Positions 1 to 15,044 are shown, numbered from the stretch's first letter. The stretch is DNA of 32,884 nt from a virus (IMGVR_UViG_3300044712_000851:1-32884), one strand, 5' to 3'. The notes: generated from the sequence alone by a model not told the origin. Numbers and translations are program-made.

Positions 1-53
1 TGGGGGGGCGGGTACATGGGCGAGGCTAGAAAACCGATCCCGCTCGTGGGGCA

Positions 54-65
54 AGGGGTACCCCT
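54..65. repeat. Perfect 12-bp palindrome AGGGGTACCCCT in a GC-rich patch
   Basis: Self-complementary sequence read directly; lies in GC-rich 1-80, followed by A/T-run-rich DNA. Confidence 0.8.
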
Positions 66-263
66 CACCCGTCGCGGTACTAATATAACACGGCTCAAAT
101 ACCTTTCCCCATTTTTTCATTTTTCCCAATTTAGGCACATCTCAAAATTTTTTTGGGAAATTTTTACACTTTTAGGACTCATAGTATTTTTGCTCTCATG
201 CCTAAAGGCAAAGAAAATCCCGACTTTTATTAAATATCGATTTAACCTATAGCTTTTGCTGAT

Positions 264-292
264 TTGACTTCTTAAGATAGGACCTTTATTAT
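264..292 (+). promoter_or_regulatory. Sigma70-type promoter (leaderless for the 299 ORF)
   Basis: TTGACT(264-269)-17 nt-TATTAT(287-292), then 6 nt, then ATG at 299. Confidence 0.7.
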
Positions 293-298
293 TAAGTA

Positions 299-634
299 AT
301 GAAACTGCCCAGATTCTATTATGTAGCTAGAAACTACTTTAATGATCACAAACACATCCCTTTTAAGATAGCAAGGCATATTTGGAATGAAGTCCGCTCT
401 CTCTTCAACCGTGCAAGGGGTTTATTCCACGAACATCAGTTTCACTACAACAGTTCCATCCTCGGGGTTGACGGTGGGCAAATACAATTGACCTGTGATT
501 ACTCTAAGTATGGGTATTATTGTGGCAAAGCTTTAAGACTTTATTACGGAAACATTAAAGGCGACGTTGAAATAGCTGAGCCTTATGTAATTAGGAGTGA
601 TAAGCCCAGTAAGACTATCTACCAAGCAAAATGA
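299..634 (+). CDS. Hypothetical phage protein
   Basis: 111-aa ORF directly after a promoter; ATGA overlap with the next gene. Confidence 0.75.
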   Translation: MKLPRFYYVARNYFNDHKHIPFKIARHIWNEVRSLFNRARGLFHEHQFHYNSSILGVDGGQIQLTCDYSKYGYYCGKALRLYYGNIKGDVEIAEPYVIRSDKPSKTIYQAK

Positions 635-828
635 TCGAAGAGCTAGAGCTATTAGTATTAGAGAAAATAGAGGGATATGTTGTTCAATGTCTCATCTCTG
701 ATTGTCCCCACTGTGGAAAAGAAAACTATTTCCCTAACTGGACTAAAAAAGATATCTTTGGTGATGGGGAAAAAGAAGTTCATTGTCAGTTCTGTAAGAA
801 AGAATACGTTATTTTAATTGAAAGATGA
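631..828 (+). CDS. Small zinc-ribbon protein
   Basis: CPHC...CQFC; ATGA overlaps at both ends. Confidence 0.75.
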   Translation: MIEELELLVLEKIEGYVVQCLISDCPHCGKENYFPNWTKKDIFGDGEKEVHCQFCKKEYVILIER

Positions 829-1058
829 CAAACCGCAAAGCCTTTACCAAACTTTTAGAAGAAACCCGAGACTATATAGATCTGAGTTACTTAAACATGT
901 GGTCTCAATACCCCCTTGGATACCTTAGATGCCAGAGTGCAGGTCACACTGAAGAGTCTGGTGACGTGGTAGTGGAAGAAAATAACCCTACGGGGACAGA
1001 TAACTTGCACGTCTGCCACACATGTCGGTTACGTTGGCATGTTGATAGTAGCGATTAA
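825..1058 (+). CDS. Hypothetical protein with Cys/His motif
   Basis: RCQSAGH...VCHTC; coupled to its neighbours. Confidence 0.7.
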   Translation: MTNRKAFTKLLEETRDYIDLSYLNMWSQYPLGYLRCQSAGHTEESGDVVVEENNPTGTDNLHVCHTCRLRWHVDSSD

Positions 1059-1059
1059 T

Positions 1060-1416
1060 ATGAAAATAACTTTTGACATAGATGGAGTTTTGAGTCATTA
1101 CCCTGATATTTTGTTTCCTTTGATAGCTTTATTGAGGGCTTCTAAGCATGAAGTCGGTATTTGTACTGGTAGGGCGTTGTCTGGCATTCCTCAAGACCTT
1201 AGGGATCAGTTTGATTTTGTTATAAGTGCTGATGGAGAAGATGACGAAATGACCGTCTTAGGACATTTAGCCAAGGACGATGAAGAAAAAATGTGTGTCT
1301 GGAAACCAATAGTTATGCGTAAGCACGGCATTGACTTACACTTCGATGATTGGGCTGATAAGATGGACGACTTTGGAGGAATCGCTGTAAGGATAGGACT
1401 CCCTAAGAGTGATTAA
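1060..1416 (+). CDS. HAD-superfamily phosphatase-like protein
   Basis: Motif I FDIDGVL, motif II CTGR, motif IV HFDD; ATG 1060 just after the upstream stop. Confidence 0.75.
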   Translation: MKITFDIDGVLSHYPDILFPLIALLRASKHEVGICTGRALSGIPQDLRDQFDFVISADGEDDEMTVLGHLAKDDEEKMCVWKPIVMRKHGIDLHFDDWADKMDDFGGIAVRIGLPKSD

Positions 1417-1424
1417 AATGAAAA

Positions 1425-2597
1425 ATGAATATACGCTTTATAGATCTTTTTGCAGGAATAGGAGGGTTCAGGTATGGACTTGAAAAGACAAAAGGCTATG
1501 AATGTGTCTATTCCAATGAATGGGATAAATATGCAACACAAATCTACGATAGCCATTTCAAGCACCCAAGCACACTCGACGAAAATGGTGGAGATGAGTC
1601 CGACTCTTCCAGAAGCGATGGGGAAAGGTGGGGGTCACGTACCGATGGTGTTGACACAAGAGACATTCGAACAGTCCCCAGCTCGGAAATCCCCGACTTC
1701 GACCTCCTTGTTGGAGGCTTCCCTTGCCAAGCGTTTAGCATCGCTGGAAAGCGTGCAGGATTTAATGACACCAGAGGGACGCTCTTTTTTGAAATCGCTA
1801 GGATTCTCCGAGACAAAAGACCCAGATATTTTATTCTTGAAAACGTCAAAGGTCTACTTAGTCATGACGAAGGAAAAACTCTCCAGACAATCTTTGGGGT
1901 TCTCTCCGACTTGGGGTATGAGTTTCAATGGCAAGTTCTTAACAGCAAAAATTTCGGAGTCCCCCAGAATAGGGAAAGAATCTTCATTGTCGGAAATCTT
2001 AGAGGAGAACGTAGACCAAAAGTATTTCCTGTCTCAGGAACAAGTGAAGAAGATAACCGCAACACAGGGGAAGATTTGTCTTACGCCTTAGATGCAAACT
2101 ATCACAAAGGAACAAACACTTTAAGCAAGGGGAGAAGACAGCTTATCCAAAAGATAGGCGGATCTCAGGGAATGAGGGTTTACGACCCAGAAGGTCTCTC
2201 TACTACAATTGCAGGTTTGGCTGGAGGATGGGGAGCAAAGACTGGTCTTTATGCCATGCAATGGCGTAGGACTGAAAAAGGAAAAGCCGAAAGACGAAAG
2301 AATCAGGCTAACGGACGAGACTACACACCTTTTTCAGACGGAGCTAGGGAAGTTGTTCCTAATCCAGATAAAAAGGTTATTGGAACAATTACCTCTCAGG
2401 CGGTAGCAAAAGACTCATTGGTGGGGAACGAAACCCAAATTCGAAGGCTTACGCCTGTGGAGTGTGAAAGATTGCAAGGATTTCCTGATGGGTGGACTGA
2501 AGGGATCAGTGATACACAGCGTTATAAGTGTTTGGGTAACGCGGTTACTACGAATGTTGTTGAGTGGATTGGAAGACAATTAATTAAAAGCATATGA
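1425..2597 (+). CDS. dcm: DNA (cytosine-5)-methyltransferase
   Basis: DLFAGIGG (I), GGFPCQAFS (IV), ENV (VI), QNRERIFIVG (VIII), RRLTPVECERLQGFPD (IX), YKCLGNAV (X). Confidence 0.95.
   Translation: MNIRFIDLFAGIGGFRYGLEKTKGYECVYSNEWDKYATQIYDSHFKHPSTLDENGGDESDSSRSDGERWGSRTDGVDTRDIRTVPSSEIPDFDLLVGGFPCQAFSIAGKRAGFNDTRGTLFFEIARILRDKRPRYFILENVKGLLSHDEGKTLQTIFGVLSDLGYEFQWQVLNSKNFGVPQNRERIFIVGNLRGERRPKVFPVSGTSEEDNRNTGEDLSYALDANYHKGTNTLSKGRRQLIQKIGGSQGMRVYDPEGLSTTIAGLAGGWGAKTGLYAMQWRRTEKGKAERRKNQANGRDYTPFSDGAREVVPNPDKKVIGTITSQAVAKDSLVGNETQIRRLTPVECERLQGFPDGWTEGISDTQRYKCLGNAVTTNVVEWIGRQLIKSI
1645..2091 (+). CDS. Alternative-frame ORF nested in the methyltransferase (candidate second subunit)
   Basis: +1 frame is open 1474-2091 and encodes SLSEILEENVDQKYFLS, resembling the post-motif-VIII segment of C5 MTases; start uncertain (several in-frame ATGs from 1474; 1645 preferred). 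Confidence 0.55.
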   Translation: MVLTQETFEQSPARKSPTSTSLLEASLAKRLASLESVQDLMTPEGRSFLKSLGFSETKDPDILFLKTSKVYLVMTKEKLSRQSLGFSPTWGMSFNGKFLTAKISESPRIGKESSLSEILEENVDQKYFLSQEQVKKITATQGKICLTP

Positions 2598-2704
2598 GTA
2601 TTTCTATTTGTCCTTACTGCGGAAAAATGATTGATGAGGATTATGATGTTGAACACTACGAGGAGTGTAGGCTGGAGCATGAAGAAAATGACGAGGGGAA
2701 CTAG
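2594..2704 (+). CDS. 36-aa putative zinc-binding peptide
   Basis: MSISICPYCGKMIDEDYDVEHYEECRLEHEENDEGN; ATGA overlap with the dcm stop; below the ORF-track cutoff. Confidence 0.6.
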   Translation: MSISICPYCGKMIDEDYDVEHYEECRLEHEENDEGN

Positions 2705-3338
2705 ACATCTTTTTGGAGACGAAGCTTTAGACTTTCAAAAGGTTACTGAGAGTTTGATTAAAACCGTCACCACTTGGGGATATAAACCTTTCTATCCCTC
2801 AACACTTGCGGATCAGAAGCTCTTTGTAGACAAAGCTGGAGACGAAGTCTTAAACCAAATGTACACCTTTAAGGACAAAGGAGATAGAGACTTATGCCTT
2901 ATTCCCGAAGTAACTGCCGTTGTTCAGAATTTGTATAATGAACACTGGTCTAAAACCCTACCAAAGCCGATTAAGCTCTATTATCTTACTAAATGTTATC
3001 GATATGAACGCCCTCAGGAAGGTAGATATAGAGAGTTCTGGCAGTTCGGAATTGAACTACTTGGCGGAGAGGAAGATATCCTTGTCAGGGATGTTCTTGT
3101 AAATGCTCTTTATAACGTCAATCCACAAGCTTTTGAAAACAATATATATAAATTTAATGGCAAAGTTAAACGGGGTCTGAACTATTATGTCGAAGATGGG
3201 TTTGAAGTAGAAGTTCCCTCTCTTGGTGCACAAAAACAAATTGCTGGAGGCGGAAGATACAAAGAGGGTATCGGATGGGCTATTGGGGTTGATCGGTTAT
3301 TATTGGCTCTAAAAAACCCACTTGACAAAGCGGAATAA
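2679..3338 (+). CDS. hisS: Histidyl-tRNA synthetase-like protein, catalytic core only
   Basis: RGTRHL, MYTFKDKGDRDLCLIPEVT, motif 2 YRYERPQEGRYREFWQFGIE, RGLNYY, GGGRY, motif 3 GWAIGVDRL; about 219 aa; start 2679 or 2688. Confidence 0.85.
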   Translation: MKKMTRGTRHLFGDEALDFQKVTESLIKTVTTWGYKPFYPSTLADQKLFVDKAGDEVLNQMYTFKDKGDRDLCLIPEVTAVVQNLYNEHWSKTLPKPIKLYYLTKCYRYERPQEGRYREFWQFGIELLGGEEDILVRDVLVNALYNVNPQAFENNIYKFNGKVKRGLNYYVEDGFEVEVPSLGAQKQIAGGGRYKEGIGWAIGVDRLLLALKNPLDKAE

Positions 3339-3350
3339 ACGTTTAATAAT
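3322..3350 (+). promoter_or_regulatory. Sigma70-type promoter (leaderless for the 3356 ORF)
   Basis: TTGACA(3322-3327)-17 nt-AATAAT(3345-3350), then 5 nt, then ATG 3356. Confidence 0.6.
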
Positions 3351-3355
3351 AAATC

Positions 3356-3517
3356 ATGCCAAAATACAAACATTCTTCTTTTGTAATCGATTTCTTTCTC
3401 TTTTTGGGACTCAGTTTCTCCATAGGTCAGGCATTTATATTTTATCCTCGTTTAGGTCTTGGTCTTGTCTTGGTAACAATTGCATTTTTGATTTGGAGGT
3501 CGGAACAATTATTCTAA
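3356..3517 (+). CDS. 53-aa membrane protein
   Basis: MPKYKHSSFVIDFFLFLGLSFSIGQAFIFYPRLGLGLVLVTIAFLIWRSEQLF; two hydrophobic stretches; ends 1 nt before the next ATG. Confidence 0.65.
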   Translation: MPKYKHSSFVIDFFLFLGLSFSIGQAFIFYPRLGLGLVLVTIAFLIWRSEQLF

Positions 3518-3518
3518 T

Positions 3519-3905
3519 ATGAAATTTAAAATTGGAGACAGAGTCAAGGTTGTGGGTAATTGCTGTAACCACAATTATAGAATTGGGAGTGTTAAAACAA
3601 TTAACAAGCTTTATCGCAGTGGTTCAATCCAAGGGTATCATTTGGGCGGAGACAATTATGTTGAAGACGAAGATATTGTCTTGGCTGGAAAGGAGATAAA
3701 AATGAAAGACACAAAATGGGGAGTTAAATATGAGATGGGTTCTGATCCAGTAGAATTCTTTAAGACTCGTAAAAAAGCTGAAGAAAGAATATTTGAATTG
3801 ATGGACGACAAAGAAGTTGTAAAATCAAGTATATACTTATTCGAAGTTGCAAAGATTTATAAAGCCAAAAGACCAATAGCTTTTATATTGGAGGAGGAAA
3901 AATAA
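3519..3905 (+). CDS. Hypothetical protein, N-terminal SH3/KOW-like FKIGDRVKV motif
   Basis: 128-aa ORF; motif common at the start of small phage proteins. Confidence 0.7.
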   Translation: MKFKIGDRVKVVGNCCNHNYRIGSVKTINKLYRSGSIQGYHLGGDNYVEDEDIVLAGKEIKMKDTKWGVKYEMGSDPVEFFKTRKKAEERIFELMDDKEVVKSSIYLFEVAKIYKAKRPIAFILEEEK

Positions 3906-3906
3906 C

Positions 3907-4179
3907 ATGAGTCACACTTATAAATTTGATATTAGAATAAAACTGTCTCATTTTGACGGTATCAAAAAAATCTTTGATAGCGTTAATAAGTCTATGGAAG
4001 AATTTACTGGGGAGAAGCATAAACTAGATGCAACCAGTTCTCTGGGGACTTTTAGTGTAACATCCGAAAAAGAACTTAGTTATAAGGATCGGATCACTAT
4101 CGCCAATCTAGCTGAGAAAGATTTTCAGGAAAAAACAAAGAATATGGATTTAACAGTAGAGGAGGTGCAAGATGAGTAG
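3907..4179 (+). CDS. Hypothetical protein
   Basis: 90-aa ORF in a tightly packed run. Confidence 0.7.
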   Translation: MSHTYKFDIRIKLSHFDGIKKIFDSVNKSMEEFTGEKHKLDATSSLGTFSVTSEKELSYKDRITIANLAEKDFQEKTKNMDLTVEEVQDE

Positions 4180-4390
4180 AGAAATTTGGTCAGGGGAAGA
4201 TGAACTAGGTTTTCAGATCGGAGATATGCATGGTGAGTGGCAAACCGAGGAAAGTAAAGAAGCCAGTGGCGGTGGTCAGGGTAAAGGAAAAAAGCCTGTA
4301 ACAAAGATTCAGGGTACTCAACATCGACAAAAAGTAGAAAAACAAGTTGTCAAAGTTAGGATTCAACAAAATCCGCCCAATAAACACTAA
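4172..4390 (+). CDS. Hypothetical protein
   Basis: 72-aa ORF, GGAGG upstream, TAATG overlap with the next gene. Confidence 0.6.
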   Translation: MSREIWSGEDELGFQIGDMHGEWQTEESKEASGGGQGKGKKPVTKIQGTQHRQKVEKQVVKVRIQQNPPNKH

Positions 4391-4701
4391 TGGAAGACAT
4401 AGAAGTTAAAAATGCAAAGATTGACAGTACAACGCTTGGTTTTGAAGACCACGGAATCTTTACTGCCTTTTTACATCTCAACTATGGCGGATCGGCACAG
4501 GGTTTTGGTGGCTATTCATATCAAGGTCTAATGTCTTACAAGTTTTTAGATGGAGTTTTAAAGACTGTTGGAGTAGATAATTGGGAAGATTTGCCTGGAA
4601 AATACATTAGGGTTAAGTGTACGAGAACGAAAGTAGTTGAAATCGGGAACATTATAGAGGATAAATGGTTTAATCCAGAGGAGGGTGAAGATGTTATCTA
4701 G
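4390..4701 (+). CDS. Hypothetical phage protein
   Basis: 103-aa ORF coupled to its neighbours. Confidence 0.75.
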   Translation: MEDIEVKNAKIDSTTLGFEDHGIFTAFLHLNYGGSAQGFGGYSYQGLMSYKFLDGVLKTVGVDNWEDLPGKYIRVKCTRTKVVEIGNIIEDKWFNPEEGEDVI

Positions 4702-4885
4702 TTTGGCTTGGTGGCATTGGGTACTTATTGTTTATTTTACTATTAGCCTTTTGGTAATTTTTGCTGTAAGAGCTGAAAGCAAAAAAGATAAAAAGGAATA
4801 CAGGATGAGTTTAGGCGAGTGGTTATTTTATCTACTTGCAATTCCTTTAATAGTTATTATAACAATCTTGGGAGGAGATAAATAA
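4691..4885 (+). CDS. Small membrane protein (2 predicted TM segments)
   Basis: Hydrophobic WWHWVLIVYFTISLLVIFAV and WLFYLLAIPLIVIITILG; GGAGG 4679-4683 favours ATG 4691. Confidence 0.7.
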   Translation: MLSSLAWWHWVLIVYFTISLLVIFAVRAESKKDKKEYRMSLGEWLFYLLAIPLIVIITILGGDK

Positions 4886-5037
4886 TGAAAATTATACAAG
4901 TAATATCTGAACACAAAAAGAACAAGGCTAACCAACAAAAGCCTGGTAGATTTCACACTAAACGTGGATGGGGTGAGGTAACTGTGGAGGAAAATGGTCA
5001 AATTGTTACCAGACACAGACCTCTGGAACAAACATGA
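4885..5037 (+). CDS. 50-aa hypothetical protein
   Basis: MKIIQVISEHKKNKANQQKPGRFHTKRGWGEVTVEENGQIVTRHRPLEQT; fills the gap exactly (TAATG and ATGA overlaps). Confidence 0.6.
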   Translation: MKIIQVISEHKKNKANQQKPGRFHTKRGWGEVTVEENGQIVTRHRPLEQT

Positions 5038-5834
5038 AGACAATTGTAGGAATAAGACCCACAGGAAAATTACATATTGGACACTACTTTAGTGTTATTA
5101 AACCAGCATTAGAAGATGATAATGTCGATGTTTTGGTAGCGACTTACCACATGTCCCCTCCAAGCAGGAAAGCGACAAATGAAGTGTGTGTTGAATTAAA
5201 CAGTTTAGGAATACTACCTAAAATGCAAGAGGTGGATGTAGATTTATATTTTAAATTATTATCTGCTTCTAGGGTGGGAGAGCTTGAGAGAATGATTCAG
5301 TACAAGTCTGTAAAAGTCAAAACTCCTCATCTCCTCGTCTACCCAGTTTTGATGGCACACGATTTGGTTGGATATGACAGGGTAATTGTTGGCGAAGACC
5401 AAAAGCAACACGTCGAATATGCCAACACTCTTTTTAAGCGTCTTGGTATGCCTACCATAAAGGGAGACTTTAGGGGTGGAAGAATAATGAGTCTTACTGA
5501 TCCGACTAAAAAGATGAGCAAGTCCGAGCCAAAGGGTTGTTTGTTTTTAGACGACAACTTTGAAGAAAAACTTAAAGGGGCAGTCACCACCCCAGCAGGA
5601 GTTAAAAACCTTAGTTACATAGCCAGTCAGTTTGGAATGAAGTGGCTTCCAAATGACAACAAGGCTTGTAAAGAACATTTGGCAACTGTATTGGAAAAGA
5701 AGTTTGGTAAAATTGGAGAAGAAAACTGTAATATATATTCTGACAACCTATCAACAGTAGTGTCACCAAAGAAGTTTCAAGAGATACTCAAGTTTATAGG
5801 AGTTCCAAAAAGCCAATGGGAAAAATTTACGTAA
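5034..5834 (+). CDS. trpS: Compact tryptophanyl-tRNA synthetase
   Basis: GIRPTGKLHIGHY (HIGH), GELERMIQYK, YPVLMAHD, GEDQKQH, RIMSLTDPTKKMSKS (KMSKS); 266 aa. Confidence 0.88.
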   Translation: MKTIVGIRPTGKLHIGHYFSVIKPALEDDNVDVLVATYHMSPPSRKATNEVCVELNSLGILPKMQEVDVDLYFKLLSASRVGELERMIQYKSVKVKTPHLLVYPVLMAHDLVGYDRVIVGEDQKQHVEYANTLFKRLGMPTIKGDFRGGRIMSLTDPTKKMSKSEPKGCLFLDDNFEEKLKGAVTTPAGVKNLSYIASQFGMKWLPNDNKACKEHLATVLEKKFGKIGEENCNIYSDNLSTVVSPKKFQEILKFIGVPKSQWEKFT

Positions 5835-6355
5835 TAACAGACACACATTTTAATCACCAAAAGATCATTGAATATGGTCGTCCTCCAGATTTTGAGGACA
5901 GAATATTCGAAGGTCTTAAGATACTTAAACCCGATGATATGCTAATACATCTTGGGGACTTTTGTATTGGCAAAGACGAAGAGTGTCATAAGAAGTTTAT
6001 GGATGCAGTCCCCTGTAAGAAGATTCTGGTTTTAGGGAATCACGACAAGAAATCTTACAACTGGTATATGGAGCATGGCTGGGATTTTGTTTGTGAAATG
6101 TTTTACCTTAAAAAGTTTGGTGAGCATATTCTCTTCTCCCACACACCTAAATCTAAAAGAAGTATTAATTTCTGGAGCATGAATGTACACGGACATTTAC
6201 ACGACAATCTACACAGGTTTCCCGAATACATAAAAATACTCACACCTAAGCACTATCTACTGTCTATGGAAAAAACAGACTACAAACCAGTAGAGCTTGA
6301 GAGCTTTATAAAAAAGAAAAGTATAGTAGAAACAGACCTTCTCAGCACATTATAG
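5816..6355 (+). CDS. Calcineurin-like metallophosphoesterase
   Basis: DTHFNH, HLGDF, LGNHD, FSHTP, NVHGHLH. Confidence 0.85.
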   Translation: MGKIYVITDTHFNHQKIIEYGRPPDFEDRIFEGLKILKPDDMLIHLGDFCIGKDEECHKKFMDAVPCKKILVLGNHDKKSYNWYMEHGWDFVCEMFYLKKFGEHILFSHTPKSKRSINFWSMNVHGHLHDNLHRFPEYIKILTPKHYLLSMEKTDYKPVELESFIKKKSIVETDLLSTL

Positions 6356-6362
6356 GGTTTAT

Positions 6363-6411
6363 TTGACTTCTTGATATTTAAAGATATACACTGATCTAGT
6401 TTGTACTAGAT
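6363..6411 (+). promoter_or_regulatory. Promoter plus operator-like inverted repeat
   Basis: TTGACT(6363-6368)-18 nt-TACACT(6387-6392); ATCTAGT-N4-ACTAGAT at 6394-6411 abuts ATG 6412. Confidence 0.55.
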
Positions 6412-6756
6412 ATGAATATTCCTGCCCAGGATTTTAAAGTGAAAGTTGGTGAGTTTTGGATAGATGTTATCTACAAAGAGACATCTAAGGTTTCTGGTCG
6501 TGCAAACTTCGGTCACTATAACCATATCAATCTTCGAATCGTCATCTCCAGAAAGTATAATAAAAATCAGCAACAGCTAGAGAACACCCTTATCCACGAG
6601 ATCTTTCATGCCATTTGGGAAATATTCGGTGTTCATGATGTGTCTGGGTATGCTTCAGATGAGAGTGCCGAGGAAACATTTGTTTCGAGATTAACTTCAG
6701 GTTGGCAAAGCTTTATGGTTGATAATCCCCAACTCTTCAATGAAGAAAAAAAATAA
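6412..6756 (+). CDS. HExxH zinc metallopeptidase-like protein (SprT/ImmA-like)
   Basis: ENTLIHEIFHAIW followed by downstream EE. Confidence 0.7.
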   Translation: MNIPAQDFKVKVGEFWIDVIYKETSKVSGRANFGHYNHINLRIVISRKYNKNQQQLENTLIHEIFHAIWEIFGVHDVSGYASDESAEETFVSRLTSGWQSFMVDNPQLFNEEKK

Positions 6757-7108
6757 GAGAGACTGGATAAGTCACTGGCTTAAAAAGGCTTATGGTCTCA
6801 CAAAAGAAGAAAAGAAAAAACTTTGGGAATACCAAAAAGGAAGATGTGCTATTTGTGGTATTAAACTGAGATTAGATTCTGATTGTAATATTGATCACGA
6901 CCACGGTAAAAATGATTTTAGGGCTAATGGTGTGAAAGGGGTTAGTTATAAAGATAGGCGTGATGCTGTCAATGGTATCGTTTGTTGGCAATGCAATACT
7001 CTGATGGGAAAGTTGGCAAGGCTAGATCCAGATCCACTCATTGCAGCCCAGAAGATTTCACAATACCTGCTTCATCCTCCTGCCCAAGAGGTTTTGACAA
7101 TGGGGTAG
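6740..7108 (+). CDS. Endonuclease VII-like nuclease
   Basis: YQKGRCAICG, IDHDH, GIVCWQCNTLMG. Confidence 0.8.
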   Translation: MKKKNKRDWISHWLKKAYGLTKEEKKKLWEYQKGRCAICGIKLRLDSDCNIDHDHGKNDFRANGVKGVSYKDRRDAVNGIVCWQCNTLMGKLARLDPDPLIAAQKISQYLLHPPAQEVLTMG

Positions 7109-9217: not shown

Positions 9218-9266
9218 GTATCTATTGTGTTTTTATCTCTTTCTTGATAGATTATATATACCGCTC

Positions 9267-11288
9267 ATGAATACAAATACAAGAGGTTCTGTCGTCCCTG
9301 AAAAAATTAAGTCGTCTTTTAAAGAGTCAGAAAAGTACTTCCCTACACAATTACAACAATTCCAGTTTTTTGATAAATATTCCCGCTTCGATTGGGATAA
9401 AGGACATCGAGAAACTTGGATGGAAACAGTTGACCGAAGTGTAGACTTTCTAAAAGAACTCAGTCTCAACAAACTTTCTCCAGAAGAATACAGTGAAATC
9501 CGTCAGTACATCCTCGAAATGAAGGCTACTCCTTCTATGCGTCTTCTTGCTATGGCTGGTAAGGCGGCGCGTAGGCAAAACGTCTGTATCTACAATTGTT
9601 CCTTTATGCCTGTCGACAGTATTGATGCATGGGTTGAAGCACTTATTATTTCCATGTCTGGATGTGGTGTTGGATTTTCAGTCGAGAAACAATTTGTAGA
9701 TAAACTCCCCTTTGTCATTTCACAGACAAATACCGATCCAATTAATCATGTTATCGAAGATACTACAGAGGGCTGGGCAAAGGCGGTTAAGACTGGGTTG
9801 GAATCTTGGTTTGATGGTCATGATATTGCTTTTGATTACTCACAGATTCGTCCAGCAGGTGCGGTACTTAAAGTTAAGGGTGGTAGGGCTTCAGGTCCAG
9901 AGCCACTCAAAAAAATGCTCGACTTTGCACGTAAAGTCATTCTTAATGCTCAAGGAAGAAAACTCACCTCCCTCGAAGCTCATGACATTATGTGCGAGGT
10001 CGGCAATGCAGCTGTATCAGGCGGAATGAGACGCACTGCAATGATTTCCCTTTTTGACTTTGATGATGATGAAATGAGGAACTGTAAGAATGGAGATCTT
10101 ACGGGTAATGAACAAAGATGGAATGCAAATAACTCAGCTGTTTGGCCTGCAACGATTACAGATACCGACATTAAAAGACAGTTTAAGGAAATGGATGAGG
10201 GTCAACGTGGAGAACCTGGAATCTTTAGTCGCGATGCAGCAAGATCCACAATGCCAACTCGAAGACTGGCTTTGGGTGAAGAGGCTTGGGGTACTAATCC
10301 TTGTGGAGAGATAGTTCTACGTCCTTATGAGTTTTGTAACCTCACAATCGCTGTAGCGAGACCAGACGACACGATAGAAACCCTTAAGGATAAAGTTAGG
10401 GTTGCATCTATAATTGGAACTATTCAATCAATGGGAACAGACTTTCCAGGATTACGGCCTCAGTGGAAGAAAAATTGTGAAGAAGAAAGGTTGTTAGGAG
10501 TCGATATTACTGGGCAGTTGGATTGTCCCATCTTTAATCAAATGTTACAAGATGACGAAGGATATCGAAAGGCATCAGAAGCATTCAAGATTTTAAGAGA
10601 CGTTGCGGTTGAGACAAACAGAGTCTACGCGCAGAGACTAGGAATCAATCAATCCGCGTCAGTTACTTGTGTTAAACCATCAGGAAATTCATCTCAATTA
10701 TTTGGATGCTCTTCAGGTCTTCATGCAAGACATTTCCCTTATTACATCCGCAATGTCAGAGTTTCCGCTCACAGTCCAATCTTCAGCGTCCTCAAGGATG
10801 CAGGAGTTCCAATGGACCCAGAGAACGGTCAGAAAGCAGAAACAGCCGAAACATGGGTTATACACTTCCCAGCCAAGTCTCCAGATGGCGGAAAGATTCA
10901 AGATGATATGACAGTTGAAGATCAGTGCAATGTTTGGCTTAACAACAAACTCAATTGGACAGAACACAATCCGTCATGCACGATTACCTATAAACCAGAT
11001 GAACTAGAGGCATTGACTAATTGGGTAATTAAAAACAAGGATAATGTTGGAGGTCTTTCTTTCTTGCCTCGTTTGGATGCTAAATACGACCAGATGCCAT
11101 ATGAACCCATTTCAGAAAAGCAGTATAATGTGCTCTTATCTGAATTCCCTGCTATAGATTTCAGCCGACTTTACATTTATGAACTAGAAGATTACACTAA
11201 AGCTGCACAGGAACTTGCTTGTATGAGCGGGGCTTGTGAAATTGATTACCAGCCTAATGCGAACGCATCGACTGGGCAGAGTAAGTAG
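9267..11288 (+). CDS. nrdJ: Class II (adenosylcobalamin-dependent) ribonucleotide reductase, monomeric type
   Basis: IYNCSF, GGMRRTA, TNPCGEI, FCNL, TCVKPSGNSSQL, C-terminal ACMSGACEI redox pair; ATG 9267. Confidence 0.9.
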   Translation: MNTNTRGSVVPEKIKSSFKESEKYFPTQLQQFQFFDKYSRFDWDKGHRETWMETVDRSVDFLKELSLNKLSPEEYSEIRQYILEMKATPSMRLLAMAGKAARRQNVCIYNCSFMPVDSIDAWVEALIISMSGCGVGFSVEKQFVDKLPFVISQTNTDPINHVIEDTTEGWAKAVKTGLESWFDGHDIAFDYSQIRPAGAVLKVKGGRASGPEPLKKMLDFARKVILNAQGRKLTSLEAHDIMCEVGNAAVSGGMRRTAMISLFDFDDDEMRNCKNGDLTGNEQRWNANNSAVWPATITDTDIKRQFKEMDEGQRGEPGIFSRDAARSTMPTRRLALGEEAWGTNPCGEIVLRPYEFCNLTIAVARPDDTIETLKDKVRVASIIGTIQSMGTDFPGLRPQWKKNCEEERLLGVDITGQLDCPIFNQMLQDDEGYRKASEAFKILRDVAVETNRVYAQRLGINQSASVTCVKPSGNSSQLFGCSSGLHARHFPYYIRNVRVSAHSPIFSVLKDAGVPMDPENGQKAETAETWVIHFPAKSPDGGKIQDDMTVEDQCNVWLNNKLNWTEHNPSCTITYKPDELEALTNWVIKNKDNVGGLSFLPRLDAKYDQMPYEPISEKQYNVLLSEFPAIDFSRLYIYELEDYTKAAQELACMSGACEIDYQPNANASTGQSK

Positions 11289-13162: not shown

Positions 13163-13429
13163 ATGGCTGCCATAGTACCACTAAATAATTACGTCGTTGT
13201 TGTTGAAGCTATTACAGACCCGATTAAAAAGGGTAGGTTTTATTCGACTGATGAAGTACATGAAATCAAAAGAGGATCTGTTGTGGGTGACAAATCTCAG
13301 GGAAAAGAGTCCCTTTTGGATAAAGAAGTTTTCTACAAGACAGAGGATGCGATTAGTTTGAAGTTTAATGATGAAAATTTAGTCATAATCGATAAGTCTA
13401 AATTATTAGCTTTTACATATAATGCCTAA
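13163..13429 (+). CDS. groES: Divergent GroES-like co-chaperonin
   Basis: IVPLNNYVVV, RGSVVG, EVFY, LVIIDKSKLLA; directly upstream of groEL. Confidence 0.75.
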   Translation: MAAIVPLNNYVVVVEAITDPIKKGRFYSTDEVHEIKRGSVVGDKSQGKESLLDKEVFYKTEDAISLKFNDENLVIIDKSKLLAFTYNA

Positions 13430-15044
13430 AGTAAAGAAAAAGATTTTATTTAACAAAGATGCCAGACAAGCTCTGATTAGAGGAGTCTCTGTTTTGGCTA
13501 AAGCAGTTACGACTACGCTTGGTCCACGCGGAAGGAACGTTGGTTTGGGGAGAAAATGGAATGCTCCTAAGGTTGTTCACGACGGTGTCTCTGTTGCCAA
13601 AGAAGTAGAAGTCGATGATCCATTTGAACAGATGGGTGTGGACATGGTTAGAGAAGCAGCAGAAAAAACCAATACTCAAGCTGGTGATGGAACAACCACT
13701 TCAATTCTATTAGCCGAACAAATAGCCTTAGCTGGAGACAAAGAAGTTGAAACACATGGAGCAAACCCAATGGCTATTCAACGAGGTCTTCAAACCGCTG
13801 GTGAGATAGTCTCCAAAAAACTTCTAGAGATGACTTCTTCAATTGATAGTTCAGAACAAATTACCCAAGTCGCCACTGTCTCTTCAGCTGACCCCGAGGT
13901 TGGTAAAAAGATTGCTGAAGCAGTTGAACGTGTCGGTAAAAAAGGAGTCATTTATGTAGAAGAGGGTAAGGGATTGGATACTTCGATAGAATACAAAGAA
14001 GGTATGGAATTTGACCGAGGTTATGCTTCACCTTACTTTGTCACAGATAATGAACGAGAGGAAACTGAAGTTTCTAATCCATACATCTTTATGACTGCCG
14101 AAAGGATAGTTACCAACAAGCAAATTATGCCTATCCTTAATGCAATTGGAAACATTGAAAAGTCAGATGGTTTTAATGTAGTTATTATTGCTGACAAAGT
14201 AGATTATGAAGCTTTGGGTACTTTATTTGTCAATCACTCAAAAGGAGTCTTGGGTGCTATCCCTATAGAAGCTCCAGGATTCGGAGATAAGCGCGAGGAA
14301 ATACTTGAAGACATCGCGGTTCTTACTGGTGGTCAAGTCTTTTCACCTAAAAAAGGAATGTCTTTTGATCAAATAGACCCGTCAATCTTTGGTAGGGCTG
14401 ATAAAGTTTGGTCTGGCAAGAGTTCCTCAAAAATAATTGGAGGAAAGGGAGACACAGAAGTTATTTCTCTTCGTGTTAAACAACTTGAGAATCAGTTGTC
14501 AAAAGAAACCTCTGAATTTGAAAGAGAAAAAATTGAAGAAAGAATTGCGAGACTTGTGGGAAGTGTTGCGATAATCAATGTTGGGGCTGCAACAGAGACA
14601 GAACTTCACGACAGGAAAGAAAGAATGGTTGATGCTGTTGCTGCTACTAAGGCAGCTGTAGCCGAGGGTATTTTGCCTGGAGGTGGAATAGCCTTACTTC
14701 GTGCGAGAGAAGAACTTAAAAAGACCACCGTTGAAAATCCAGAGGAGCAAATAGGAATCAACATCTTATATGAAGTATTAGGAAGACCAGTTGAGAGACT
14801 TCTTGAACTTGCCAATATTAAAGACTCAAAGACAGCCCTAAAGGAAATAATGAGTTCTAAAGATCCTAACTATGGATGCAATGTTTCTACTGGTGAAATG
14901 GGAGATCTTATAAAATTGGGAATTATCGATCCGACAAAAGTTATCCGCACCGCTCTTCAAAATGCCATATCAGTTGCTGGAATTGTCATTACCACAGAGG
15001 TTTTGATCGCTGTTACGGATATTGTGGAAGGAGGCGAGTCTTAA
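13422..15044 (+). CDS. groEL: Chaperonin GroEL
   Basis: TLGPRGRNV, AGDGTTT, EGMEFDRGYASPYF, APGFGDKR, EGILPGGG, GIIDPTKVIRTALQNA. Confidence 0.97.
   Translation: MPKVKKKILFNKDARQALIRGVSVLAKAVTTTLGPRGRNVGLGRKWNAPKVVHDGVSVAKEVEVDDPFEQMGVDMVREAAEKTNTQAGDGTTTSILLAEQIALAGDKEVETHGANPMAIQRGLQTAGEIVSKKLLEMTSSIDSSEQITQVATVSSADPEVGKKIAEAVERVGKKGVIYVEEGKGLDTSIEYKEGMEFDRGYASPYFVTDNEREETEVSNPYIFMTAERIVTNKQIMPILNAIGNIEKSDGFNVVIIADKVDYEALGTLFVNHSKGVLGAIPIEAPGFGDKREEILEDIAVLTGGQVFSPKKGMSFDQIDPSIFGRADKVWSGKSSSKIIGGKGDTEVISLRVKQLENQLSKETSEFEREKIEERIARLVGSVAIINVGAATETELHDRKERMVDAVAATKAAVAEGILPGGGIALLRAREELKKTTVENPEEQIGINILYEVLGRPVERLLELANIKDSKTALKEIMSSKDPNYGCNVSTGEMGDLIKLGIIDPTKVIRTALQNAISVAGIVITTEVLIAVTDIVEGGES

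Follow-up and report, generated by a model that had tools for sequence, protein, structure and literature searches.

The gene at positions 2679-3338 (+) of IMGVR_UViG_3300044712_000851:1-32884, a 32,884-nucleotide stretch of phage DNA that was analyzed over its full length and is referred to here as the window, encodes a half-size relative of histidyl-tRNA synthetase (HisRS). This gene is a plain, non-frameshifted member of a large and mostly viral protein family, hereafter mini-HisRS, which is undescribed in the literature searched. Based on its conserved residues, its predicted structure, and the tRNA genes of this and related phages, it was proposed, with moderate confidence, that mini-HisRS is a dimeric HisRS that would recognize only the tRNA-His acceptor stem and would charge the tRNA-His of the phage and perhaps that of the host. 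Whereas the architecture, the conservation, the existence of the family, the predicted fold, and the association with tRNA-His genes in relatives are shown here, catalysis, the identity of the substrate tRNA, an advantage for the phage, and dimerization in vivo are inferred.

A search restricted to proteins of 120-384 residues retrieved 1,760 homologues, the best 120 of which show 52-69% identity, are nearly all 195-225 residues long, and lie on contigs of up to 669 kb. Scored against the query, full-length HisRS sequences reach at most 175 bits, whereas mini-HisRS proteins reach 236-305 bits. When 1.84 billion cluster representatives were searched exhaustively without a profile, approximately 35 clusters sharing this one-stretch architecture were recovered, with identities as low as approximately 32%. 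The family occurs mostly in huge phages, with LR745206 and LR756502 among the carriers from the genomes of Al-Shayeb et al. (2020), and in five complete huge-phage genomes the mini form is the sole hisS, no full-length HisRS having been found there. In a search of one genome from each of 185,579 prokaryotic species, which gave at least 587 matches, the best 80 loci included six mini-type matches (Telmatospirillum, a Burkholderiales metagenome-assembled genome, two Paraburkholderia, and two Pseudomonas), and the remaining loci were normal hisS. Automatic annotation labels family members merely as "histidyl-tRNA synthetase", no PHROGs family matches the protein, and no description of a half-size phage HisRS family was found in the literature searched, the coverage of which was incomplete, so that absence is not proven. 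Two longer proteins contain mini-HisRS together with another region, as either gene-calling fusions or real ones: P0009 (358 residues) with an N-terminal HNH_3-type endonuclease domain, and P0121 (385 residues) with a C-terminal P-domain-like region.

In a quick-search tree of 31 mini-HisRS and 59 full-length HisRS sequences, which contains several long branches and a full-length sample biased towards the query, one branch separates both groups with a support of 100 in the Shimodaira-Hasegawa-like approximate likelihood-ratio test (SH-aLRT), and the window protein lies in a seven-member mini clade marked with a star. No donor host lineage is indicated by this tree; the best full-length matches in the query-biased sample are mostly archaeal. 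A sequence-only reading made earlier of the same DNA had described the protein as a natural minimal HisRS and named phylogeny and the length of its orthologues as checks. This description survives both, since the orthologues are uniformly approximately 195-225 residues long with conserved catalytic residues and form a branch distinct from the sampled full-length enzymes.

Catalytic core, deletions, and predicted dimer

The protein matches the Pfam families tRNA-synt_His (PF13393; E 4.8e-18, 65.9 bits, cut-off 25) and tRNA-synt_2b (PF00587, the class IIa core; E 4.5e-13, above cut-off). Against the NCBIfam models, it scores 170.2 bits in two stretches with hisS (TIGR00442), under the equivalog cut-off of 286.75, and 89.7 bits with hisZ (TIGR00443; cut-off 271.65), and the profile comparison suggested by the sequence-only reading thus favors HisRS over HisZ. 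Alignment to the Protein Data Bank (PDB) with phmmer pairs residues 4-141 with residues 5-145 of Thermus thermophilus HisRS and residues 157-211 with residues 251-316. A multiple alignment with full-length HisRS reveals three clean deletions: one of approximately 105 residues, within which the insertion domain falls, a second of 11 residues located between GGGRY and motif 3, and a third that takes away the entire C-terminal anticodon-binding domain of approximately 100 residues. The spacing from the motif 2 Glu to the HisA Arg is accordingly 38 residues here and 32-43 in the family, compared with approximately 128 in T. thermophilus HisRS, which bears out the earlier remark that the segment between motif 2 and RGLNYY is far shorter than in cellular HisRS. 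No match to the anticodon-binding domain HGTP_anticodon (PF03129), which might have been supplied in trans, was found anywhere in the complete phage genome, and neither a second or full-length HisRS nor a second class IIa core was found in it.

The reading frame of approximately 219 residues outlined earlier is open, with 219 codons and a stop. Class II motifs 1, 2, and 3 together with RGLNYY and GGGRY, all of which had been noted, motif 1 as a motif-1-like segment, are seen in the translation and conserved in the family. As had also been described, the protein ends just past motif 3: the motif ends at approximately residue 211 and the stop codon follows after 8 residues, and family members extend 3-19 residues beyond the motif 3 Arg. 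The parts of the gene are as follows, with conservation counts here and below taken from an alignment of 103 relatives of 50-69% identity.

2679..3338, plus strand: mini-HisRS gene, 219 codons and a stop (open reading frame, translation)
2694..2705, plus strand: N-terminal RGTR segment, residues 6-9; Arg6 equals T. thermophilus Arg7 and is R/K in 98/103 relatives
2784..2819, plus strand: motif 1 region, residues 36-47, dimer interface; residues 36-45 lie in the predicted homodimer interface, and residues 43-45 form a strand in the model
2856..2915, plus strand: residues 60-79 with Gln60, KGDR, and the LIPEVT TXE-type loop (Glu77, Thr79; histidine-binding), from the alignment to T. thermophilus HisRS and family counts
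2991..3065, plus strand: motif 2 and its loop, residues 105-129, with Arg108, Glu110, Arg111, Gln113, Arg116, Arg118, Gln122, and Glu126 invariant or nearly so
3066..3164, plus strand: short linker of two helices, residues 130-162, replacing the approximately 105-residue insertion region; helices 133-147 and 149-153 in the model
3171..3188, plus strand: HisA motif RGLNYY, residues 165-170; R165, G166, L167, Y169, and Y170 invariant
3246..3260, plus strand: HisB motif GGGRY, residues 190-194; G190-192 and Y194 invariant, R193 in 95/103
3267..3311, plus strand: motif 3, residues 197-211, with ATP-binding Arg206; G197, G199, G203, and R206 invariant

Because 82 of the 103 relatives begin at the position equivalent to Met4, translation probably begins at the ATG at 2688, which would give a product of 216 residues; a GGAG lies 10 nt upstream of this ATG.

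The residues invariant in all 103 relatives are E77, R108, P112, Q113, G115, R116, Y117, R118, E119, F120, Q122, G124, and E126, and, in the C-terminal half, R165, G166, L167, Y169, Y170, G190-192, Y194, G197, G199, G203, and R206. By alignment, they correspond to the residues with which HisRS binds ATP and histidine. In motif 2, R108, E110, R111, Q113, R116, R118, and E126 map to R112, E114, R115, Q117, R120, R122, and E130 of the T. thermophilus enzyme. The replacement of the usual LRPE by LIPE, which had been pointed out for this protein, is real and family-wide, Ile being found in 95 of the 103 members.

An AlphaFold2 model built from the family alignment contains all strands of the class II sheet, with a predicted local distance difference test (pLDDT) score of 92.8 and a predicted template modeling (pTM) score of 0.89, so that the structure-prediction check proposed earlier returned a confident HisRS catalytic-domain fold. 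Both Foldseek and VIA-align match the model to HisRS catalytic domains, and the top structural match is 4rdx_A (Z 26.3, root-mean-square deviation (rmsd) 2.2 A, 204 residues aligned, chain span 2-322). A homodimer was predicted with a score of 0.86 against 0.00 for the best control, with at least 94% of contacts in agreement between runs and a partner pLDDT of at least 82; in the benchmark, a score of 0.86 is reached by 20 of 30 solved same-chain pairs and by 1 of 23 solved single chains. The predicted interface comprises the N-terminus, motif 1 (residues 36-45), and residues 62-72. Mini-HisRS is thus predicted to form a HisRS-like homodimer, although the predictor may have drawn on solved HisRS dimers, and the result shows likeness rather than binding.

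Canonical HisRS of T. thermophilus (4RDX/1ADJ) and Escherichia coli (1KMM/2EL9) has the catalytic fold of the model (Z 24-26; rmsd 2.2 A for 204-212 residues), with 29-37% identity across the positions aligned. Mini-HisRS has in common with these enzymes motifs 1-3, HisA, HisB, those residues of the motif 2 loop by which the acceptor end is held, and the dimer predicted through motif 1. Mini-HisRS differs in the absence of the insertion region, the 11-residue loop before motif 3, and the anticodon-binding domain, in having LIPE for LRPE, Gln for Glu64, and Gly-Asp for Gly-Gly, and in its separate branch in the tree.

tRNA contacts and the link to tRNA-His

Nearly all residues that touch the acceptor end of tRNA-His in T. 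thermophilus HisRS (roles from PMC4357726) are retained in the catalytic core of mini-HisRS as follows.

Arg7, contacting the C68 phosphate (acceptor-stem backbone): R6 here, R/K in 98/103
Glu114, contacting A76: E110 here, E/D in 103/103
Arg115, contacting the G-1 phosphate and G1: R111 here, R/K in 98/103
Gln117, contacting the backbone of 71-72: Q113 here, invariant
Arg120, contacting C74: R116 here, invariant
Arg122, contacting the G-1 phosphate: R118 here, invariant
Gly260 and Tyr264, contacting the acceptor end: G166 and Y170 here, invariant

The tRNA contacts made by the insertion domain of T. thermophilus HisRS are absent from mini-HisRS; in that enzyme, single mutants of two such contacts, R197A and K209A, are each largely tolerated (PMC4357726). 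Over the shared core columns, mini-HisRS proteins carry approximately 5 more positive charges than full-length enzymes, weak evidence that may hint at compensation.

The phage genome, from a rhizosphere metagenome, is complete at 96.9 kb (direct terminal repeats, CheckV completeness 100%), and the window covers its first 32.9 kb. No tRNA genes were found in the window itself, whereas the region at 68-77 kb of the genome has, according to ARAGORN, a tmRNA and 36 tRNA genes, among them one tRNA-His(GTG) and one tRNA-Trp. The tRNA-His gene, at genome positions 76227-76298 on the minus strand and therefore outside the window, has G-1, G1:C72, and C73.

To examine the genomic surroundings of the family, 56 related loci were taken from IMG/VR, most of them belonging to phages of 250-600 kb; the mini-HisRS gene is usually embedded in a tRNA island. 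Of the 34 loci with a tRNA within 1.5 kb of the gene, 12 have tRNA-His as the closest one, although tRNA-His accounts for only 5.3% of all 693 tRNAs across the loci; after de-duplication (10 of 30), the binomial P is approximately 2e-6, a value that overstates independence, as the loci are related. The adjacent tRNA-His lies upstream of the mini-HisRS gene in some loci but downstream of it elsewhere, 3 to 674 nt away. Sinorhizobium phage Phosso (469 kb), a cultured phage that infects S. meliloti, carries a tRNA-His of the G-1:C73 type that ends 275 bp upstream of its mini-HisRS gene. G-1, G1:C72, and C73 occur together in 22 of 35 distinct tRNA-His genes, a set that comprises those around mini-HisRS in related loci and the non-adjacent one of the present genome; G at position -1 is found in only 9 of 647 non-His tRNAs. 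No conserved protein neighbor of mini-HisRS was found across three different contexts. Among the closest homologues, the contig of P0003 encodes a ThiF-like E1, a RuvB-like AAA protein, an integrase, and a Mom-family protein nearby, and a polynucleotide kinase-phosphatase-like protein is encoded at 4650-5585 of locus L160.

Some of the related loci contain a second type of tRNA-His(GTG) without G-1 and with G1:U72 and A73 (U73 in one).

L008, 9252-9327: tRNA-His(GTG) of this type
L011, 8979-9054: tRNA-His(GTG) of this type
L015, 9275-9348: tRNA-His(GTG) of this type
L020, 10692-10764: tRNA-His(GTG) of this type
L035, 9351-9426: tRNA-His(GTG) of this type

Four of these five loci also hold a G-1:C73 tRNA-His near mini-HisRS, and in L035 the 20 kb analyzed show the host-like type alone. 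In Rhizobiales, Caulobacterales, and related alpha-proteobacteria, tRNA-His lacks G-1 (G1:U72, A73), and the HisRS of Caulobacter fails to charge E. coli tRNA-His (PMC3064791). The arrangement in Phosso and in the huge phages with both tRNA-His types fits a possible self-contained phage synthetase-tRNA pair.

A further connection with histidine is found in a subclade of the family. Approximately 80-115 nt into the mini-HisRS gene, approximately 22 of the 56 loci, as well as Phosso, have an RF2-like +1 frameshift site at a His codon. The site consists of a Shine-Dalgarno-like GGGGG/GGAGG followed by CTT/GTT and then CAT/CAC (His), mostly with a stop at once or within three codons, such that an opening frame of approximately 28-33 codons (up to 38) precedes the remainder of the protein in the +1 frame.

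L006-L022, L028, L029, L032, L035, L036, L041, and L001 (Phosso): loci with the frameshift site

Many relatives thus share the +1 layout of prfB, the gene for release factor 2, with a His codon where prfB has a stop. Such a site fits feedback on mini-HisRS synthesis by the supply of charged tRNA-His. The gene in the window does not have the site; it is one uninterrupted frame and is read straight through.

Regarding the acceptor, the sequence-only reading had listed tRNA-His, cleaved tRNA halves or minihelices, and a non-tRNA acceptor. The evidence points to ordinary tRNA-His because of the acceptor-end contacts, the tRNA-His neighbors, the frameshift at a His codon, and the phage's own G-1/C73 tRNA-His; nothing in these sequence and structure analyses supports cleaved halves or a non-tRNA acceptor.

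Proposed mechanism and alternatives

In the proposed mechanism, histidine would be activated with ATP by the unchanged site formed by motif 2, motif 3, HisA, and HisB. The histidine would then be moved to a tRNA-His that is recognized by its acceptor end only, through the G-1 phosphate and base, G1, C73-C74, and A76, with contacts that the motif 2 loop and an N-terminal Arg could supply. The anticodon would remain unread, and the insertion-domain clamp would be absent. The substrate is probably the phage's own tRNA-His (G-1, G1:C72, C73) and perhaps also the host tRNA-His, and the likely benefit to this phage, which supplies 37 tRNAs itself, is that its His-tRNA would stay charged without reliance on the HisRS of the host.

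A class II catalytic domain that stands alone in this way has a counterpart in another family. The pyrrolysyl-tRNA synthetase (PylRS) of Methanomethylophilus alvus is active on its own and ignores the anticodon. Its structures (8DQG, 7U0R; 275 residues) match the mini-HisRS model with Z 21, although PylRS belongs to another family, uses another amino acid, is approximately 55 residues longer, and has a tRNA specialized to fit it. Within the HisRS family, engineered fragments keep histidine activation (PMC3060492). They include Ncat (residues 1-320 of E. coli HisRS; Augustine and Francklyn, 1997), the activity of which is approximately 2000-fold lower, and urzymes of 119-145 residues, the activity of which is down 4-9 million-fold (PMC3060492). 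Like mini-HisRS, these fragments lack the anticodon-binding domain, and the urzymes also lack the insertion domain. In contrast, they are laboratory constructs, whereas mini-HisRS is a natural protein kept by selection, which is far shorter than Ncat and retains HisA, HisB, and motif 3, absent from most urzymes. Huge phages have been described as carrying aminoacyl-tRNA synthetases alongside large tRNA sets (Al-Shayeb et al., 2020; PMC7162821), a setting similar to that of mini-HisRS; in the passages searched, that paper treats the phage synthetases as relatives of host enzymes and mentions no half-size HisRS family.

Several observations weigh against the proposed acceptor-stem-only HisRS. 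The hisS score falls short of the equivalog cut-off, as described above. Removal of the C-terminal domain alone costs the E. coli enzyme approximately 2000-fold (PMC3060492), and mini-HisRS has lost the insertion domain besides. The semi-conserved Glu64 of T. thermophilus HisRS is reportedly essential for aminoacylation (PMC4357726), but its equivalent is Gln60 here and Gln in 99 of the 103 family members. The cross-subunit pocket for G-1 in T. thermophilus HisRS is formed by Gly72'-Gly73' of 71'RGGR74' (PMC4357726); the same position is Gly-Asp here (KGDR), and in the family G/K followed by D/G/E/N. To these are added the relatedness of the loci counted for tRNA-His adjacency, which makes the events non-independent, and the distance in the present genome, in which the mini-HisRS gene and the tRNA-His gene are approximately 73 kb apart, or approximately 23 kb across the genome ends.

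Some of the same features could also serve an enzyme that makes histidyl-adenylate and passes the histidine to a non-canonical acceptor, such as a carrier protein, a small molecule, or a tRNA-like RNA, or that yields a dinucleotide polyphosphate by-product. The adenylate-forming site is intact, every anticodon-reading part is gone, and Gln replaces the Glu64 equivalent; truncated synthetase paralogues, namely YadB, the SerRS-like amino acid:carrier protein (aa:CP) ligases, and HisZ, provide precedents (PMC9437257). This alternative is nevertheless unlikely, given that mini-HisRS conserves the residues that touch C74, A76, and the phosphate of G-1 in the solved complex with tRNA, that gene neighbors point to tRNA-His and include no conserved partner protein in the three contexts, and that the His-codon frameshift of relatives fits His-tRNA feedback.

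A role in binding rather than in catalysis, whereby the protein would pair with host HisRS via motif 1 to alter or block it or would act as a decoy or sensor for tRNA-His or histidine, is likewise unlikely. Regulatory paralogues normally lose catalytic residues, whereas the ATP and histidine ligands of mini-HisRS are invariant across deep divergence, and the hisS score is well above that of hisZ in a genome without HisG. On the other side stand the dimer interface, which is kept and predicted with high confidence, the location of the gene in a seemingly early, host-takeover region, and the reuse of the HisRS fold for regulation by HisZ and GCN2 (PMC11363354). HisZ itself resembles mini-HisRS as a HisRS-like core without the anticodon-binding domain (Z 21-23), but it is approximately 310-390 residues long, keeps the insertion region, and partners HisG, and the catalytic residues of mini-HisRS are intact. 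A HisZ-like regulator was ruled out by the lower hisZ score and by the absence of any match to HisG (PF01634) in the complete genome, a search in which all 14 control genomes matched.

Finally, the half-normal length and the score under the equivalog cut-off could suggest a remnant, either a truncated or decaying captured host hisS or an assembly artefact, but this is extremely improbable: hundreds of relatives match it in length, show these three clean deletions as well, and branch apart from the 59 full-length sequences, related loci show no frame boundaries indicative of fragments of longer genes, the frame is uninterrupted, and the stretch is partly present in a second rhizosphere run. Truncation or assembly error was ruled out because the relatives share the length and deletions and the genome is complete.

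Neighboring genes and significance

The window encodes a terminase, a portal protein, a capsid protein, GroEL, ribonucleotide reductase, and a C5 DNA methylase, as judged from its reading frames and Pfam matches; the translations at 13422-15044 (+) and 9225-11288 (+) read as a full-length chaperonin of the GroEL type and a large protein resembling ribonucleotide reductase, respectively. The portal protein gave a single weak match among cultured phages. Two rhizosphere DNA sequencing runs contain the stretch, the second of which, from another study, has 26% of the sampled words (window 2000-6000); no RNA sequencing runs containing it are listed. Immediately upstream of mini-HisRS is a small reading frame.

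2594..2704, plus strand: cysteine-rich open reading frame of 36 codons (CPYC ... EEC), read from the sequence as a stop-free translation

This frame, for which no PHROG match was found, overlaps the DNA methylase stop codon (ATGA) as well as the mini-HisRS start. Because of these overlaps, the gene order suggests that the methylase, the cysteine-rich frame, and mini-HisRS may form one translationally coupled early operon. A promoter and terminator scan of window positions 1-7000 gave counts no higher than those of shuffled controls. The top sigma-70-like match of the first 7 kb, at 3322-3350 (+) (TTGACA, 17 nt, AATAAT; 11/12), lies within the last mini-HisRS codons and faces the downstream genes.

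A second compact synthetase is encoded at window positions 5034-5834 (+), a TrpRS-like class I protein of 266 residues with HIGH and KMSKS signatures, which scores 77 bits against trpS (cut-off 176.75). TrpRS-like homologues are present in the same huge phages, and the copy in LR756502 lies approximately 4 kb from the mini-HisRS of that phage.

It is possible, though doubtful, that mini-HisRS is the smallest natural aminoacyl-tRNA synthetase (approximately 205-219 residues), selecting its substrate by the acceptor stem only and forming a self-contained pair with a phage tRNA-His bearing G-1 and C73; that it also histidylates tRNA-like RNAs is less likely. If such a pair exists, it would let the phage charge its own tRNA-His regardless of the host enzyme, and its importance would be greatest in hosts such as Rhizobiales, in which HisRS acts on a tRNA-His lacking G-1. 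At least one carrier of mini-HisRS, Sinorhizobium phage Phosso, is in culture. If active, mini-HisRS would be a natural class II synthetase of approximately 210 residues with neither an anticodon reader nor an insertion clamp; such minimal synthetases have hitherto been suggested only by engineered fragments and urzymes, at a large cost in activity. An active mini-HisRS would thus offer a natural, evolved test of tRNA selection by the acceptor stem alone and a very small, possibly orthogonal synthetase-tRNA pair for genetic-code engineering, and would help to explain the translation independence of phages with full tRNA sets.

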